Of a DNA stretch of 64,000 nucleotides, positions 42,101-48,000 are shown piece by piece. The notes under the pieces are model-generated. The model made no database searches. It had not been told where the DNA came from and saw only the letters and a program-made list of their open reading frames with translations. The position numbers and the translations under genes were made by a program. This DNA comes from Escherichia coli (GTDB taxonomy: Bacteria; Pseudomonadota; Gammaproteobacteria; Enterobacterales; Enterobacteriaceae). The stretch's first letter is position 1, and each line of letters opens with the position of its first letter. The stretch lies in the NCBI RefSeq assembly GCF_003334815.1, contig NZ_QOWO01000009.1. The stretch is one strand, 5' to 3'.

Positions 42101-42895
42101 ATGAAACCGACCACCATCTCCTTACTGCAGAAGTACAAACAGGAAAAAAAACGTTTCGCGACCATCACCGCTTATGACTATAGCTTCGCCAAACTCTTTG
42201 CTGATGAAGGGCTTAACGTCATGCTGGTGGGCGATTCGCTGGGCATGACGGTTCAGGGGCACGACTCCACCCTGCCAGTTACCGTTGCCGATATCGCCTA
42301 CCACACTGCCGCCGTACGTCGCGGCGCACCAAACTGCCTGCTGCTGGCTGACCTGCCGTTTATGGCGTATGCCACGCCGGAACAAGCCTTCGAAAACGCC
42401 GCAACGGTTATGCGTGCCGGTGCTAACATGGTCAAAATTGAAGGCGGTGAGTGGCTGGTAGAAACCGTACAAATGCTGACCGAACGTGCCGTTCCTGTAT
42501 GTGGTCACTTAGGTTTAACACCACAGTCAGTGAATATTTTCGGTGGCTACAAAGTTCAGGGGCGCGGCGATGAAGCGGGCGATCAACTGCTCAGCGATGC
42601 ATTAGCCTTAGAAGCTGCTGGGGCACAGCTGCTGGTGCTGGAATGCGTGCCGGTTGAACTGGCAAAACGTATTACCGAAGCACTGGCGATCCCGGTTATT
42701 GGCATTGGCGCAGGCAACGTCACTGACGGGCAGATCCTCGTGATGCACGACGCCTTTGGTATTACCGGCGGTCACATTCCTAAATTCGCTAAAAATTTCC
42801 TCGCCGAAACGGGCGACATCCGCGCGGCTGTGCGGCAGTATATGGCTGAAGTGGAGTCCGGCGTTTATCCGGGCGAAGAACACAGTTTCCATTAA
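42101..42895 (+). CDS. panB: 3-methyl-2-oxobutanoate hydroxymethyltransferase
   Basis: Track ORF 42101..42895, 264 aa, [37 protein letters not shown]... Confidence 0.95.
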
Positions 42896-42906
42896 GGAGT
42901 CACGTT

Positions 42907-43758
42907 GTGTTAATTATCGAAACCCTGCCGCTGCTGCGTCAGCAAATTCGCCGCCTGCGTATGGAAGGCAAGCGCGTGGCGCTGGTGCCTACCATGGGTA
43001 ACCTGCACGATGGCCATATGAAGCTGGTCGACGAAGCCAAAGCCCGCGCCGATGTGGTCGTCGTCAGTATTTTCGTTAACCCGATGCAGTTCGACCGCCC
43101 GGAAGATCTGGCTCGTTATCCACGGACCTTGCAGGAGGACTGCGAGAAGCTAAACAAACGTAAAGTGGATTTAGTTTTCGCCCCTTCGGTAAAAGAGATC
43201 TACCCGAACGGTACTGAAACCCACACTTACGTTGACGTTCCTGGCCTTTCGACCATGCTGGAAGGTGCCAGCCGTCCGGGACATTTTCGCGGCGTTTCGA
43301 CTATTGTCAGCAAGCTGTTCAACCTGGTCCAGCCGGACATCGCCTGCTTCGGTGAAAAAGATTTTCAGCAACTGGCGCTGATCCGCAAAATGGTTGCCGA
43401 TATGGGCTTCGATATTGAGATTGTCGGTGTGCCAATTATGCGCGCCAAAGACGGTCTGGCGCTAAGTTCCCGTAACGGTTATCTGACGGCGGAACAACGC
43501 AAAATTGCGCCTGGTCTGTACAAAGTTTTAAGTTCGATTGCTGACAAATTGCAGGCTGGGGAACGGGATCTCGATGAAATTATTACCATTGCGGGGCAAG
43601 AACTGAATGAAAAAGGCTTCCGCGCCGATGATATTCAGATTCGCGATGCCGACACATTGCTGGAAGTTTCTGAAACCAGCAAACGGGCAGTAATTCTGGT
43701 AGCCGCCTGGCTTGGCGATGCTCGCCTGATCGACAACAAAATGGTCGAGCTGGCGTAA
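42907..43758 (+). CDS. panC: pantothenate synthetase
   Basis: Track ORF 42907..43758 (GTG start; AAGGAG 9 nt upstream), 283 aa, ...[10 protein letters not shown]... HIGH-type motif. Confidence 0.95.
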
Positions 43759-43762
43759 TACT

Positions 43763-43793
43763 TAACTGGCGCTACGGCTGATGGCGCCAGTTA
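43763..43793. terminator. inverted repeat between convergent panC and yadD (putative bidirectional terminator)
   Basis: TAACTGGCGC / GCGCCAGTTA 10-bp arms with 11-nt loop, followed by TTATTAATTT. Confidence 0.4.
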
Positions 43794-43831
43794 TTAATTT
43801 ACCCCACGTCATCTGTCATAACACAGGTAAC

Positions 43832-44014
43832 TTAAATAAGGTTAATTACCTTATCAATCTCAGCAAGAGGTAAATTTGCCATCTCTGCAACGTCTTCCCG
43901 AGACATTCCTTTACTCAGAAGACGCTGGGCGAATTCCTGACTTACTTCCTGTCTTCCCTGCTGAATCCCCTTCTCAATCCCTTTCTCTTCAAACCACTGC
44001 GCCAGCGTCATCAT
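43832..44014 (-). CDS. candidate intragenic small protein (C-terminal 60 aa of YadD/RpnC; putative Rpn_S-type product)
   Basis: In-frame ATG-ATG doublet (minus-strand start 44014) preceded by ACGGGAGGGGAGTCT (GGAGG 7 nt upstream); would encode MMTLAQWFEEKGIEKGIQQGRQEVSQEFAQRLLSKGMSREDVAEMANLPLAEIDKVINLI; not verified. Confidence 0.4.
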   Translation of the reverse strand: MMTLAQWFEEKGIEKGIQQGRQEVSQEFAQRLLSKGMSREDVAEMANLPLAEIDKVINLI

Positions 44015-44734
44015 AGACTCCCCTCCCGTTTCCCTGTCTCTCAACACACCGTAAAACAAATCCGCTTGTTCAGTATGACCGCGTTGCAGCATATAGTTTT
44101 GCATGGCAACTAACTGACTTCCGCTAGTGTACCCTTCGTCGATCAGCGTGACCAGTTGCTCAAGCAATAACATTAAGTCGCGCTGGCGAATATGTTTTTG
44201 CAGTAGTTCGAGAATCGCAATCCGCCGATGTTGCATGATTTCGTCATCCGGTGTGATGGTGATATCCACCAGCGGGAAAGGACTGTTATAGACGCGTCGC
44301 GCCAGCTCCGGCGAGTAAAACATATCAAACCAGCACATTGATAGCGGATAAGGTGTGGCCTCGCCCTGATAAAACAGTATCGGCACCACCAGCGGCAGCT
44401 TATCGTGGTCAGCCTCCAGATGCCGGTGCATGGCGGCTATAGAATAACGCATCATGCGAAAGGCCATTTTCTTATCCGGCTTGCTTTGGTGTTCAATCAC
44501 AACATGCAGATAACCGGGATTGCCCTGCATTTGCACGGAATAGAGCACGTCCGTGCTGTGTCCTTTCAGGCTCTCTTCAATGAAACTCCCCGACTCTAAA
44601 TGAAGCGTGTTGAGGTCACAAAGTTCGCGTAATTCCACTGGCAAATGTATCTCCAGAAAGTCGCGAGCCGTCTCCGCATGCATTAAAAATTGTTTAAATA
44701 CCGCGTCATGCGGTGTGGTACTCGGTGCATCCAT
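43832..44734 (-). CDS. rpnC: Rpn-family recombination-promoting nuclease (YhgA-like, PD-(D/E)XK, transposase_31 family)
   Basis: Track ORF 43832..44734 (-), 300 aa, MDAPSTTPHDAVFKQFLMHAETARDFLEIHLP...; recognised as YadD (RpnC); AGGGA Shine-Dalgarno upstream. Confidence 0.9.
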   Translation of the reverse strand: MDAPSTTPHDAVFKQFLMHAETARDFLEIHLPVELRELCDLNTLHLESGSFIEESLKGHSTDVLYSVQMQGNPGYLHVVIEHQSKPDKKMAFRMMRYSIAAMHRHLEADHDKLPLVVPILFYQGEATPYPLSMCWFDMFYSPELARRVYNSPFPLVDITITPDDEIMQHRRIAILELLQKHIRQRDLMLLLEQLVTLIDEGYTSGSQLVAMQNYMLQRGHTEQADLFYGVLRDRETGGESMMTLAQWFEEKGIEKGIQQGRQEVSQEFAQRLLSKGMSREDVAEMANLPLAEIDKVINLI

Positions 44735-45007
44735 CTTCCCTGTCTTCCGTGTGGCTTTGCGTGAAGGCAGTATCCAGTCAAGGCGCGCTATCGTCAGCCA
44801 CCTCTTTATTGTTTACCGAGCAGCGTTCAGAGAAATATCAATTCGTTACAGGCGATACATGGCACGCTTCGGCGCGGTACGCAAACTGCTGACGCAAATG
44901 CCGTCAGATGAGTAGACACTAAACAAAAATCGGGCAATACTGCGTGAGAATTTCCTCAAAGCAGGCATCGCCTGCTTCGTTAACGACAGGGTAGAAAGGT
45001 AGAAGTT

Positions 45008-45388
45008 ATGATTCGCACGATGCTGCAGGGCAAACTCCACCGCGTGAAAGTGACTCATGCGGACCTGCACTATGAAGGTTCTTGCGCCATTGACCAGGAT
45101 TTTCTTGACGCAGCCGGTATTCTCGAAAACGAAGCCATTGATATCTGGAATGTCACCAACGGCAAGCGTTTCTCCACTTATGCCATCGCGGCAGAACGCG
45201 GTTCGAGAATTATTTCTGTTAACGGTGCGGCGGCCCACTGCGCCAGTGTCGGCGATATTGTCATCATCGCCAGCTTCGTTACCATGCCAGATGAAGAAGC
45301 TCGCACCTGGCGACCCAACGTCGCCTATTTTGAAGGCGACAATGAAATGAAACGTACCGCGAAAGCGATTCCGGTACAGGTTGCTTGA
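45008..45388 (+). CDS. panD: aspartate 1-decarboxylase proenzyme
   Basis: Track ORF 45008..45388, 126 aa, [31 protein letters not shown] (self-cleavage site G24-S25). Confidence 0.95.
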
Positions 45389-45391
45389 TTG

Positions 45392-46621
45392 TTATCCCTG
45401 CGGCTGGTTACTCACCAGCCGCGACATCGTCTCCAGCGAATCCGTTCTTAAGATATAAAGTCGTTTTAGTAACAACGGATTATCCCCCGGTTTTACTTTG
45501 CCTTTCATGGTTGTCACCGCCAGGTGAAATCCGGCATCGTTTGCTGCCTTCACGGCGTTGTCATTAAATCCGCCAAACGGATACGAAAGATACCAGACAT
45601 GCGGATTAAATTGCGCCAGAGCGCGGCGTGAACGTGCAAAATCAAACAGAATATTGTGCTCACTACGGCTCAGTAATATGGGTCGGCGATAACCATCTAC
45701 CCGATGCAAAAAATGGGTATGTGACTGGAAATCAAATACATCGCGAATTTCGTTAAGCTCAGAAACGCTCATAAATTGCAGCGATTTTGGGTTCCACTTC
45801 TGCGGGTGACGTTTGATGCGTGAGGTAACAATAAACGCCGTCGCCTTCATGCCATATTGTTTCAACACAGGATACGCATAGCGGCTCACCGACTTGAGGC
45901 CATCATCAAAGGTAATCACCACCGCTCGCGCAGGGAGATTGATCTTATTCTTCACGTAGCCTTCCAGCTGCACCATGCTCAGTGTCGCGTATCCCCTGTC
46001 ACGCAGCCAGGCCATCTGGTTATTGAAAGCGCGTACCGATGTGGTCGTCGAAGTATGGCGAAAACGGGTGTTTTCTTCGTCGCGCAGAATATGGTGATAG
46101 GTTAGCACCGACAGGCCATTATCGGGTTGGGCATCCAGTGCGCTGATATAGGCCAGTCGATCGCCAATACGGATCTGATACCAGGTTTGATTTAACCTGT
46201 CTTTCAGTTTATGCAAAATCGGGTAGCGCAAATTGTCCGCCAGTACCCCAAATGGCGCACTTCCCGCACTCGGCGCGTTATAGACCGGCGTATCTTTCCA
46301 GGTAACTAAGTTCTGATTACTCAGCGGCTTGTTGAGGTCGCCCAAACCGTCTTCAACTTTTTGTCGCCCCTGAACCGGCTCGAGATGACCTTTATCGATA
46401 AAACCTTTGCCAAAGCCAAAATTAAATGCGTAATAACTTGCGGCAGTGGGCTCCACGGCAATGATTTGTCCGGCCCGAATATTCCCCACGGTCACCATCT
46501 TGTCACCAATTTGCGCCCAGACCGCAGCATTTTCGATGGTTTGCATATAACGGGCAGGTAACGCGGCACTGACACTTGCGGTAAACAGCATCAGCAGGAG
46601 AATAACAGCTTGTTTGTACAT
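45392..46621 (-). CDS. yadE: putative secreted polysaccharide deacetylase (NodB/CE4 domain)
   Basis: Track ORF 45392..46621 (-), 409 aa, signal peptide [19 protein letters not shown]; C-terminal domain has deacetylase-like TFDDG motif. Confidence 0.85.
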
Positions 46622-46684
46622 GAAAAAATAACCGAGGGTGAAACAACGCTTTTATTGTAGCAAAAGCGCCATCAGAATCGCGGG

Positions 46685-47125
46685 TTAATACTCATACAAA
46701 TTATGTTTGAGGACGAAAGGCGGATTTTTTTGTTGTTGGTGCCAAAGACTACTCACCTCCGGCGCACCCAGTTCGACAATACGCTCGCGAAACTCTGAAC
46801 TGGTCATGGTTTCACGGCAAGCCATCATCTGTTCAATTAACGGTAACGTGACACCAGAAATCACTTCGCAACGGGAGTGTTTGTGGCTTAATAATGAAGC
46901 CACGCGATACGGTGGCGCTCCGGCTATATCGGTTAAGAAGATGACACCCTCACCAGAGTCCGCTTCATGCAGAGCATCGCACATCATGCGGCTGAGCATA
47001 TTAGAGCTTAATCCGCGCCAGAAATTCACGGCCCGGCACTGAAGAAGTGCCCCATGTTTTTTCTCCAGCGCATCCAGTATCTCTTGCGCCCGGTCATCGT
47101 GACAGGTAATTACCCAACCTAACAT
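46685..47125 (-). CDS. yadI: orphan PTS EIIA-like protein (mannose/sorbose family)
   Basis: Track ORF 46685..47125 (-), 146 aa, MLGWVITCHDDRAQEILDALEKKHG...; no EIIB/C/D partner genes in the window. Confidence 0.85.
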   Translation of the reverse strand: MLGWVITCHDDRAQEILDALEKKHGALLQCRAVNFWRGLSSNMLSRMMCDALHEADSGEGVIFLTDIAGAPPYRVASLLSHKHSRCEVISGVTLPLIEQMMACRETMTSSEFRERIVELGAPEVSSLWHQQQKNPPFVLKHNLYEY

Positions 47126-47185
47126 CGCCTTCCTCCTTAGCCGAAAATCAGTCTACCCTGACCATTGTTGATAAAGGGTGATAGC

Positions 47186-47222
47186 CGTCAAAACTCCTCT
47201 CCCCCAAATCCAGAGGAGAGGA
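47186..47222 (-). terminator. yadGH operon terminator (putative)
   Basis: TCCTCTCC / GGAGAGGA 8-bp stem with 12-nt loop (47195-47222); minus-strand GUUUUGACGG follows; 8 nt after yadH stop. Confidence 0.4.
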
Positions 47223-47229
47223 AATAGCC

Positions 47230-48000
47230 TTAGCTACGCAAACCACGTCCACGTTGGATCAGCGACCAACAGATCAAATAAAACGCCACAATAAAGACCA
47301 CCAGTACGCCAAAGGTAGTGACCAGCGGAACATCATTGATACCGAGGAAGCCGTAGCGGAAACCACTGATCATATAAACGATTGGGTTCAGGTGCGACAG
47401 CCCTTGCCAGAACGGCGGCAACAAAGTCAGTGAGTAAAAGACCCCGCCCAAATACGTGAGTGGCGTTAACACAAAGGTTGGCACCAGGCTGATGTCATCG
47501 AACGTTTTGGCAAACACACCGTTCAGCAAACCCGCAAGGGAGAACAACACCGCCGTGAGCACCAGCGTTAAGGCAACGAATACCCACGAATGCACCTGAA
47601 ATGGCACAAAAAACAGTGAAATTGCCGTCACCAGAATGCCAACAAACAGACCACGCGCCACGCCACCGCCGACATATCCGGCAATAATGACGTGAGTCGG
47701 AACCGGCGCTACCAGCAGCTCTTCAATATTACGCTGGAACTTGGCACCAAAAAATGATGACGCAACGTTGGCGTAGGCATTGGTGATCACCGACATCATG
47801 ATCAGCCCCGGTACGATGAACTGCATATAGCTGAAGCCATGCATATCGCCAATACGCGAACCAATCAGGTTACCGAAGATAATAAAGTAAAGGGTCATGG
47901 TGATGACTGGCGGCACCAGCGTCTGCACCCAGATACGCATAAAGCGATGGATCTCTTTCGCCCAGATGCTTTTTAGCGCCACCCAGTAAAGATGCATCAT
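47230..48000 (-). CDS. yadH: ABC-2 type transporter permease
   Basis: Track ORF 47230..48000 (-), 256 aa, six predicted TM segments; start overlaps yadG stop by 4 nt. Confidence 0.9.
   Translation of the reverse strand: MMHLYWVALKSIWAKEIHRFMRIWVQTLVPPVITMTLYFIIFGNLIGSRIGDMHGFSYMQFIVPGLIMMSVITNAYANVASSFFGAKFQRNIEELLVAPVPTHVIIAGYVGGGVARGLFVGILVTAISLFFVPFQVHSWVFVALTLVLTAVLFSLAGLLNGVFAKTFDDISLVPTFVLTPLTYLGGVFYSLTLLPPFWQGLSHLNPIVYMISGFRYGFLGINDVPLVTTFGVLVVFIVAFYLICWSLIQRGRGLRS

Follow-up and report, generated by a model that had tools for sequence, protein, structure and literature searches.

A conserved hairpin in the last codons of yadE probably defines the 3' end of the converging panD mRNA in Escherichia coli

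Convergent genes with overlapping 3' untranslated regions have been described as convergent excludons by Lasa, Toledo-Arana and colleagues, and the ExcludonFinder survey reported 165 such pairs in E. coli MG1655 (Sanmartin et al. 2025, PMC12288877). In 146 of these 165 pairs, the predicted terminators lie inside the transcription unit of the neighbour. For scale, the total number of convergent gene pairs in E. coli is about 704 (bioRxiv 10.64898/2026.03.23.713779). The panD and yadE transcripts resemble this class in overlapping at their 3' ends, which is what a convergent excludon consists of, and the pair is listed in Table 1 of the ExcludonFinder study. In excludons proper, reciprocal expression and RNase III processing give the arrangement its meaning, whereas the overlap itself is what panD/yadE has in common with them.

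Overlapping bidirectional terminators (Ju et al. 2019) form a second point of comparison, because they also place a palindromic hairpin at a convergent junction. An example lies within the window, by which we mean the whole 64,000-nt stretch of DNA analysed here:

49699-49729, both strands: hpt-can bidirectional terminator, with a perfect hairpin at 49703-49725 and Term-seq ends at K-12 141973 (minus) and 142003 (plus).

Both hpt-can 3' ends fall 4 nt outside the hairpin, in intergenic DNA, and U-runs follow it. In contrast, panD/yadE shows one end, and its hairpin precedes the yadE stop codon.

The closest likeness is to Rho-dependent transcripts with protective 3' stem-loops, which have precise ends just past stem-loops without U-tracts, C-rich downstream sequence, and ends that arise through trimming by PNPase and RNase II (Dar and Sorek 2018, NAR, PMC6061677). 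The panD mRNA likewise ends a few nucleotides past a stable GC-rich stem-loop that has no U-tract; C exceeds G downstream, and the RNA reported further downstream, which would be panD read-through, is sensitive to bicyclomycin. It differs from the described class in that its stem-loop is located in the coding sequence of a converging gene rather than in intergenic DNA, and has been kept there across the Enterobacteriaceae. The model of Rho-dependent transcripts with protective 3' stem-loops is reportedly that of Peters et al. 2012.

The junction is composed of the following elements.

45008..45388, plus strand: panD coding sequence (aspartate 1-decarboxylase), ending GCT TGA with the TGA stop at 45386-45388; 100% identical to annotated K-12 panD.
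45389..45391, no strand: the spacer TTG between the stop codons, 3 nt, read from the sequence.
45392..46621, minus strand: yadE coding sequence (periplasmic polysaccharide deacetylase family, PF01522), 409 aa, with the TAA stop at 45394-45392.

On the plus strand the yadE stop codon reads TTA (45392-45394). A previous sequence-only reading of this DNA had given the distance between the two stop codons as 3 nt, and this is correct, both as read directly from the sequence and in the RefSeq annotation of E. coli K-12 MG1655, to which the stretch is 100% identical. The neighbouring genes are panB, panC, rpnC (yadD), panD, yadE, yadI, yadH and yadG. The 1-kb junction was found in 5,422 of 5,426 complete E. 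coli genomes (at least 80% coverage), and its 86-nt core in 5,424. Among the junction-matching records in the E. coli genome collection, 61 are labelled as plasmids, and 452 records match the 86-nt junction in the 90-95% identity band. At least two E. coli haplotypes share the 3-nt gap: TGA-TTG-TTA, as in K-12, and TGA-TAA-TCA (loci L005 and L008), which gives panD tandem stop codons and yadE a TGA stop.

An inverted repeat, GCGGCTGGT-tactc-ACCAGCCGC in DNA letters, begins 12 nt past the panD stop codon and lies entirely within the last codons of yadE.

45400..45422, plus strand: perfect 9-bp GC-rich hairpin GCGGCUGGU-uacuc-ACCAGCCGC over yadE codons 400-408, identified by folding and conservation.

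The codons covered by the hairpin encode S-R-L-V-S-N-Q-P-Q. The 52-nt segment that contains it folds with a dG of -20.6 kcal/mol (z -3.7 against shuffled sequences), and perfect 9-bp hairpins with a 3-8-nt loop occur at only 14 places in the 64-kb window. There is no U-run beside the hairpin on either strand, and a terminator scan gave no call there. The tail behind it is GACAUCGU, with 2 U in 8 positions. A canonical intrinsic terminator consists of a GC-rich hairpin and a run of 7-8 U, and we rejected this assignment because the U-run is missing. The panC-rpnC pair, which is also among the 165 convergent excludons (PMC12288877), likewise has a hairpin at its junction.

43759-43831, no strand: panC-rpnC convergent junction, 73 nt, with an ordinary intergenic hairpin AACUGGCGCUAC..GAUGGCGCCAGUU (z -3.9).

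Published Term-seq data place the end of panD mRNA immediately 3' of the hairpin within yadE (Adams et al. 2021, eLife, PMC7815308). In that dataset the end is classed as both primary and antisense, a combination that applies to 99 3' ends in one condition, and it maps to K-12 146275(-) in LB at OD 0.4 and OD 2.0 and to 146276(-) in M63. We converted coordinates as window position = 191702 - K-12 coordinate.

45426..45427, plus strand: steady-state panD mRNA 3' end (K-12 146276/146275, minus strand; Adams 2021 Term-seq, supplementary file 1).
45392..45427, no strand: shortest possible antisense overlap (36 nt) of panD mRNA with a yadE transcript complete to its stop codon, from the mapped panD end and the yadE coordinates.

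In all three growth conditions, panD mRNA ends 4-5 nt past the stem, whose last nucleotide is 45422, and 35-36 nt within the yadE coding sequence. The stem-loop sits immediately 5' of the steady-state end, as in transcripts with protective 3' stem-loops, and the U-tract is absent here as it is there. The panD 3' UTR is 39 nt long, and 36 nt of it are antisense to the last part of the yadE coding sequence. Because the panD 3' end lies within yadE, any stop-carrying yadE mRNA is complementary to the panD 3' UTR. The sequence-only reading had predicted that the two transcripts overlap in antisense and had proposed 3'-end mapping as the check. On the panD side that prediction is borne out, since the published end falls inside yadE and not before the stop codon, and the listing of the pair as a convergent excludon agrees with it. 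Its further claim, that the gap leaves no room for a terminator, was mistaken: a conserved hairpin in the last yadE codons marks the panD 3' end, and termination itself would take place beyond it, probably through Rho. The supplements of the SMRT-Cappable-seq and TERMITe studies mention neither panD nor yadE, and Rfam returned nothing relevant for 42500-48500.

Downstream of the mapped end, RNA antisense to yadE is sensitive to bicyclomycin. The same study reports a Rho region at K-12 145798(-), where upstream/downstream reads change from 214/27 in untreated cells to 412/373 with bicyclomycin (Rho score 7.2, p 8e-27; PMC7815308); these scores derive from 800-nt windows, which makes the position approximate and leaves the origin of the RNA unproven.

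45428..45904, plus strand: read-through zone antisense to yadE, ending at the window equivalent of K-12 145798(-) (Adams 2021, supplementary file 2).

Base composition over the first 100 nt past the panD stop codon is 29% C and 19% G, a C/G ratio of 1.53. Given the 800-nt windows, an antisense promoter inside yadE, and not panD, could be the source of the bicyclomycin-sensitive RNA, but we infer that Rho acts here on panD read-through and not on another antisense RNA. Elsewhere in the neighbourhood, a strong Rho region (score 16.9) lies antisense to rpnC at K-12 147624(-) (Adams 2021, PMC7815308).

We propose that the 3' end of panD is probably defined by the hairpin that it shares with yadE codons, by Rho-dependent release downstream and by exonucleolytic trimming back to the stem. 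RNA polymerase transcribing panD would run past the TGA into antisense yadE and would transcribe the 9-bp hairpin at 45400-45422, which lacks a U-tract. Release would probably occur further downstream, through the action of Rho on untranslated, C-rich antisense RNA. Exonucleases that work in the 3'-to-5' direction would then presumably trim the transcript back to the hairpin and leave a stable end 4-5 nt past the stem, and the hairpin would be expected to stabilise panD mRNA. The same 23 nt would therefore double as codons for YadE residues 400-408 and as the 3' element of panD. Such sharing would account for the near-zero spacer between the genes, and panD would do without an intergenic terminator because its 3'-end element sits in the converging yadE gene.

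To compare the junction across enterobacteria, we scanned for PanD in one genome per species and obtained 80 loci. In 45 of the 80, yadE converges on panD with stop codons 1-6 nt apart; these include Escherichia, Salmonella, Citrobacter, Klebsiella, Enterobacter, Pluralibacter, Lelliottia and Silvania, and both the length (1-6 nt) and the sequence of the spacer vary across the 45 species. Eight loci have a gap of 32-35 nt, where the spacer has gained a second hairpin, and two have a gap of 61 or 158 nt. In a further 4 loci yadE is more than 800 nt from panD, and in 21 tblastn detected none in the 2.5-kb flank. The hairpin was found in all 59 loci that have yadE.

In the eight loci with the longer spacer (L029, L030, L038, L042, L045, L054, L060 and L066; about 2882-2916 in locus numbering), the extra hairpin is GC-rich and has no U-run. 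Two consecutive hairpins after panD were seen in Kluyvera, in Klebsiella pneumoniae, in a Raoultella and in an Enterobacter. The internally deleted yadE remnant of an Escherichia species (L003, 2885-3138) keeps both the junction and the hairpin.

Covariation was scored in a gapless alignment of 60 sequences, 50 of them distinct, with counts uncorrected for shared ancestry. Of 450 pair cells, 443 (98.4%) are paired when read on the panD strand and 417 when read on the yadE strand. In 32 cells the panD strand has G·U where the yadE strand has A·C; the reverse holds in 6, again uncorrected for shared ancestry. The panD-strand fold is the more stable one in 45 of the 50 distinct sequences. Double changes are of the types CG to UA (3 rows) and CG to AU (2 rows), amounting to 5 cells in 2 pairs and few lineages, and one stem position alternates between GC, AU and GU. 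These compensatory changes fall at synonymous sites of yadE. Of 56 sequences, 54 use CGG for the arginine in the stem. The other two use AGG, and both carry the paired change CCG to CCU; the arginine codons 9 and 14 codons upstream of the stem vary freely.

This strand preference bears on the possibility that the junction is a collision-driven overlapping bidirectional terminator (Ju et al. 2019; Wang et al.), in which a palindromic hairpin pauses both polymerases and head-on collisions end both transcripts independently of Rho. The hairpin is indeed a perfect DNA palindrome without a U-tract between converging units, as in that class, and the classic pattern of two ends flanking one shared hairpin, each 4 nt outside it, is found nearby at hpt-can. 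At panD/yadE, however, only the panD-side end is found next to the hairpin, the wobble pairs favour the panD strand only, and the downstream antisense RNA is sensitive to bicyclomycin. If yadE mRNA ended 4-5 nt beyond the hairpin, its last nucleotide would be at about 45395-45396, short of a complete stop codon, and the product would be a non-stop mRNA. Expression of yadE also appears too low for frequent collisions. We therefore regard this mechanism as very unlikely.

The loci that have deleted yadE are particularly informative. In L016 (a Pluralibacter MAG) and L043 (Intestinirhabdus), yadE is missing and panD now converges on yadI. Both retain the hairpin about 13-16 nt past the panD stop codon, in non-coding DNA and with compensatory TA to CG changes. 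Across the 80 species, the best hairpin in the 75 nt past the panD stop codon has a mean dG between -18 and -20 kcal/mol whichever class of locus is considered, as compared with -11.6 +/- 3.9 kcal/mol for random 75-nt windows, and most of these hairpins have no U-run, also where yadE is absent. Because panD keeps a 3' hairpin with or without yadE, the hairpin functionally belongs to panD.

These loci also weigh heavily against coincidence, that is, against the hairpin being a by-product of the YadE C-terminal residues and codon usage and the mapped end being a decay intermediate. The stem codons do encode a conserved R-L-V/I-S-N-Q-P motif, mostly with common codons (CTG, CAG, CCG). But loci that have deleted yadE still carry the hairpin, with compensatory changes, an observation that largely refutes the idea; synonymous changes in the stem are paired, a rare CGG codon is fixed there, and distant YadE homologues do not share the C-terminal sequence. 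The scarcity of perfect 9-bp hairpins in the window argues in the same direction, and coincidence appears extremely unlikely. In four loci (L050, L051, L055 and L064), yadE has been parted from panD by other genes, yet it keeps its terminal hairpin. Coding for YadE, or an insertion too recent for the hairpin to have decayed, may thus explain part of its conservation. What the present comparison across species adds is evidence that a hairpin in coding sequence is maintained for the mRNA of a neighbouring gene.

In the two Raoultella loci among these four (L050 and L051, 2941-4177), three minus-strand ORFs of 80, 158 and 173 aa lie between panD and yadE, and in L055 and L064 yadE is displaced by about 0.85-1.6 kb. 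All four have a different hairpin after the panD stop codon, followed by a T-run in L050 and L051.

On the yadE side, the gene is driven by an active, regulated promoter of its own, which carries a repressor site and whose activity in stationary phase depends on RpoS (Reg-Seq, PMC12133099). Because of this promoter, yadE transcripts must cross the junction. No yadE-strand 3' end stands beside the panD entry in the three Term-seq condition tables, and none is found at K-12 142003-160097 in LB at OD 0.4; the Adams 2021 tables also contain no Rho region antisense to panD (PMC7815308). Folding and scanning identified one candidate within panD:

45339..45375, minus strand: candidate E. coli-specific yadE terminator, GUACCGGAA..UUCGCGGUAC with the tail GUUUCAUUUCAUU, opposite the panD 3' end.

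This candidate is a 9-bp bulged hairpin (45375-45352) with a U-rich tail, and it may act as a terminator in E. coli. As a conserved yadE terminator it was rejected, since in other species its pairs are broken at third-codon positions of panD and are uncompensated. The fold energies of the antisense panD end differ little between species with and without an adjacent yadE. Most likely, yadE transcription reads into antisense panD at a low level.

Alternatively, the overlap might be a regulatory excludon that lets either gene lower the other, through polymerase collision or through cleavage of the duplex by RNase III; the sequence-only reading had pointed to a potential for such interference and for RNase III-sensitive duplexes. 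In its favour, RNA-seq coverage of the two genes overlaps in at least 50% of 58 samples, the definition by which ExcludonFinder lists the pair among its 165 (PMC12288877), the mapped panD end guarantees at least 36 nt of overlap, the yadE promoter is independent and regulated by a repressor site and RpoS, and the close spacing is ancient, with 1-6 nt in 45 species. In the ExcludonFinder study, validation by dsRNA did not prove feasible for convergent pairs, p19 capture being uninformative for them (PMC12288877). Against regulation, the Adams 2021 tables contain neither a yadE 3' end nor a Rho region antisense to panD, and no extra constraint is seen on the spacer or on the antisense panD sequence. 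A hairpin of the same kind follows panD in the 21 species without yadE in the 2.5-kb flank and in the 4 with yadE more than 800 nt away, which indicates that panD is independent of yadE. Accordingly, we consider a regulatory role for the overlap unlikely. It is more doubtful still that the forced 36-nt overlap couples the two genes such that de-repression of yadE (by RpoS, salt or redox stress) lowers panD mRNA and the supply of beta-alanine and CoA, or the reverse, with the hairpin as a long-maintained dual-use element. Nothing in this analysis supports a shared pathway for a predicted periplasmic polysaccharide deacetylase and a cytoplasmic aspartate decarboxylase (cf. PMC12288877).

The panD/yadE overlap is real but ordinary: the pair and the panD 3' end already stand in published genome-wide tables, the proposed sharing of a hairpin and Rho-dependent release fits a described class, and the finding opens no new biological question. 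It does illustrate that a near-zero convergent gap is not the same as a missing terminator, because the 3'-end signal may sit in the coding sequence of the neighbour, where selection can preserve it over the whole history of the enterobacterial family. Genome annotation and engineering can both make use of this point: an edit that deletes or recodes the 3' end of yadE would take the 3' hairpin away from panD and could alter panD expression, a consideration for strains that produce beta-alanine or pantothenate.

We also considered whether the YadE C-terminal tail arose by read-through into an older panD terminator. This was rejected, because the tails of distant homologues (30-50% identity) are comparable in length but differ in sequence, and there is therefore no sign of a recent extension. 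The reading frame does continue past the present stop codon:

44846..45391, minus strand: open frame beyond the yadE stop, 182 codons, antisense to the whole of panD.

Protein databases contain YadE variants of 586-591 aa (P0002, P0003 and P0005-P0007), one of them named from E. coli 5-366-08_S1_C1. In P0002 at least, the yadE stop codon is changed to Gln and the ORF spans panD in antisense. Two further variants differ internally, P0001 being a 599-aa YadE with an internal duplication and P0008 a 376-aa YadE with an internal deletion.
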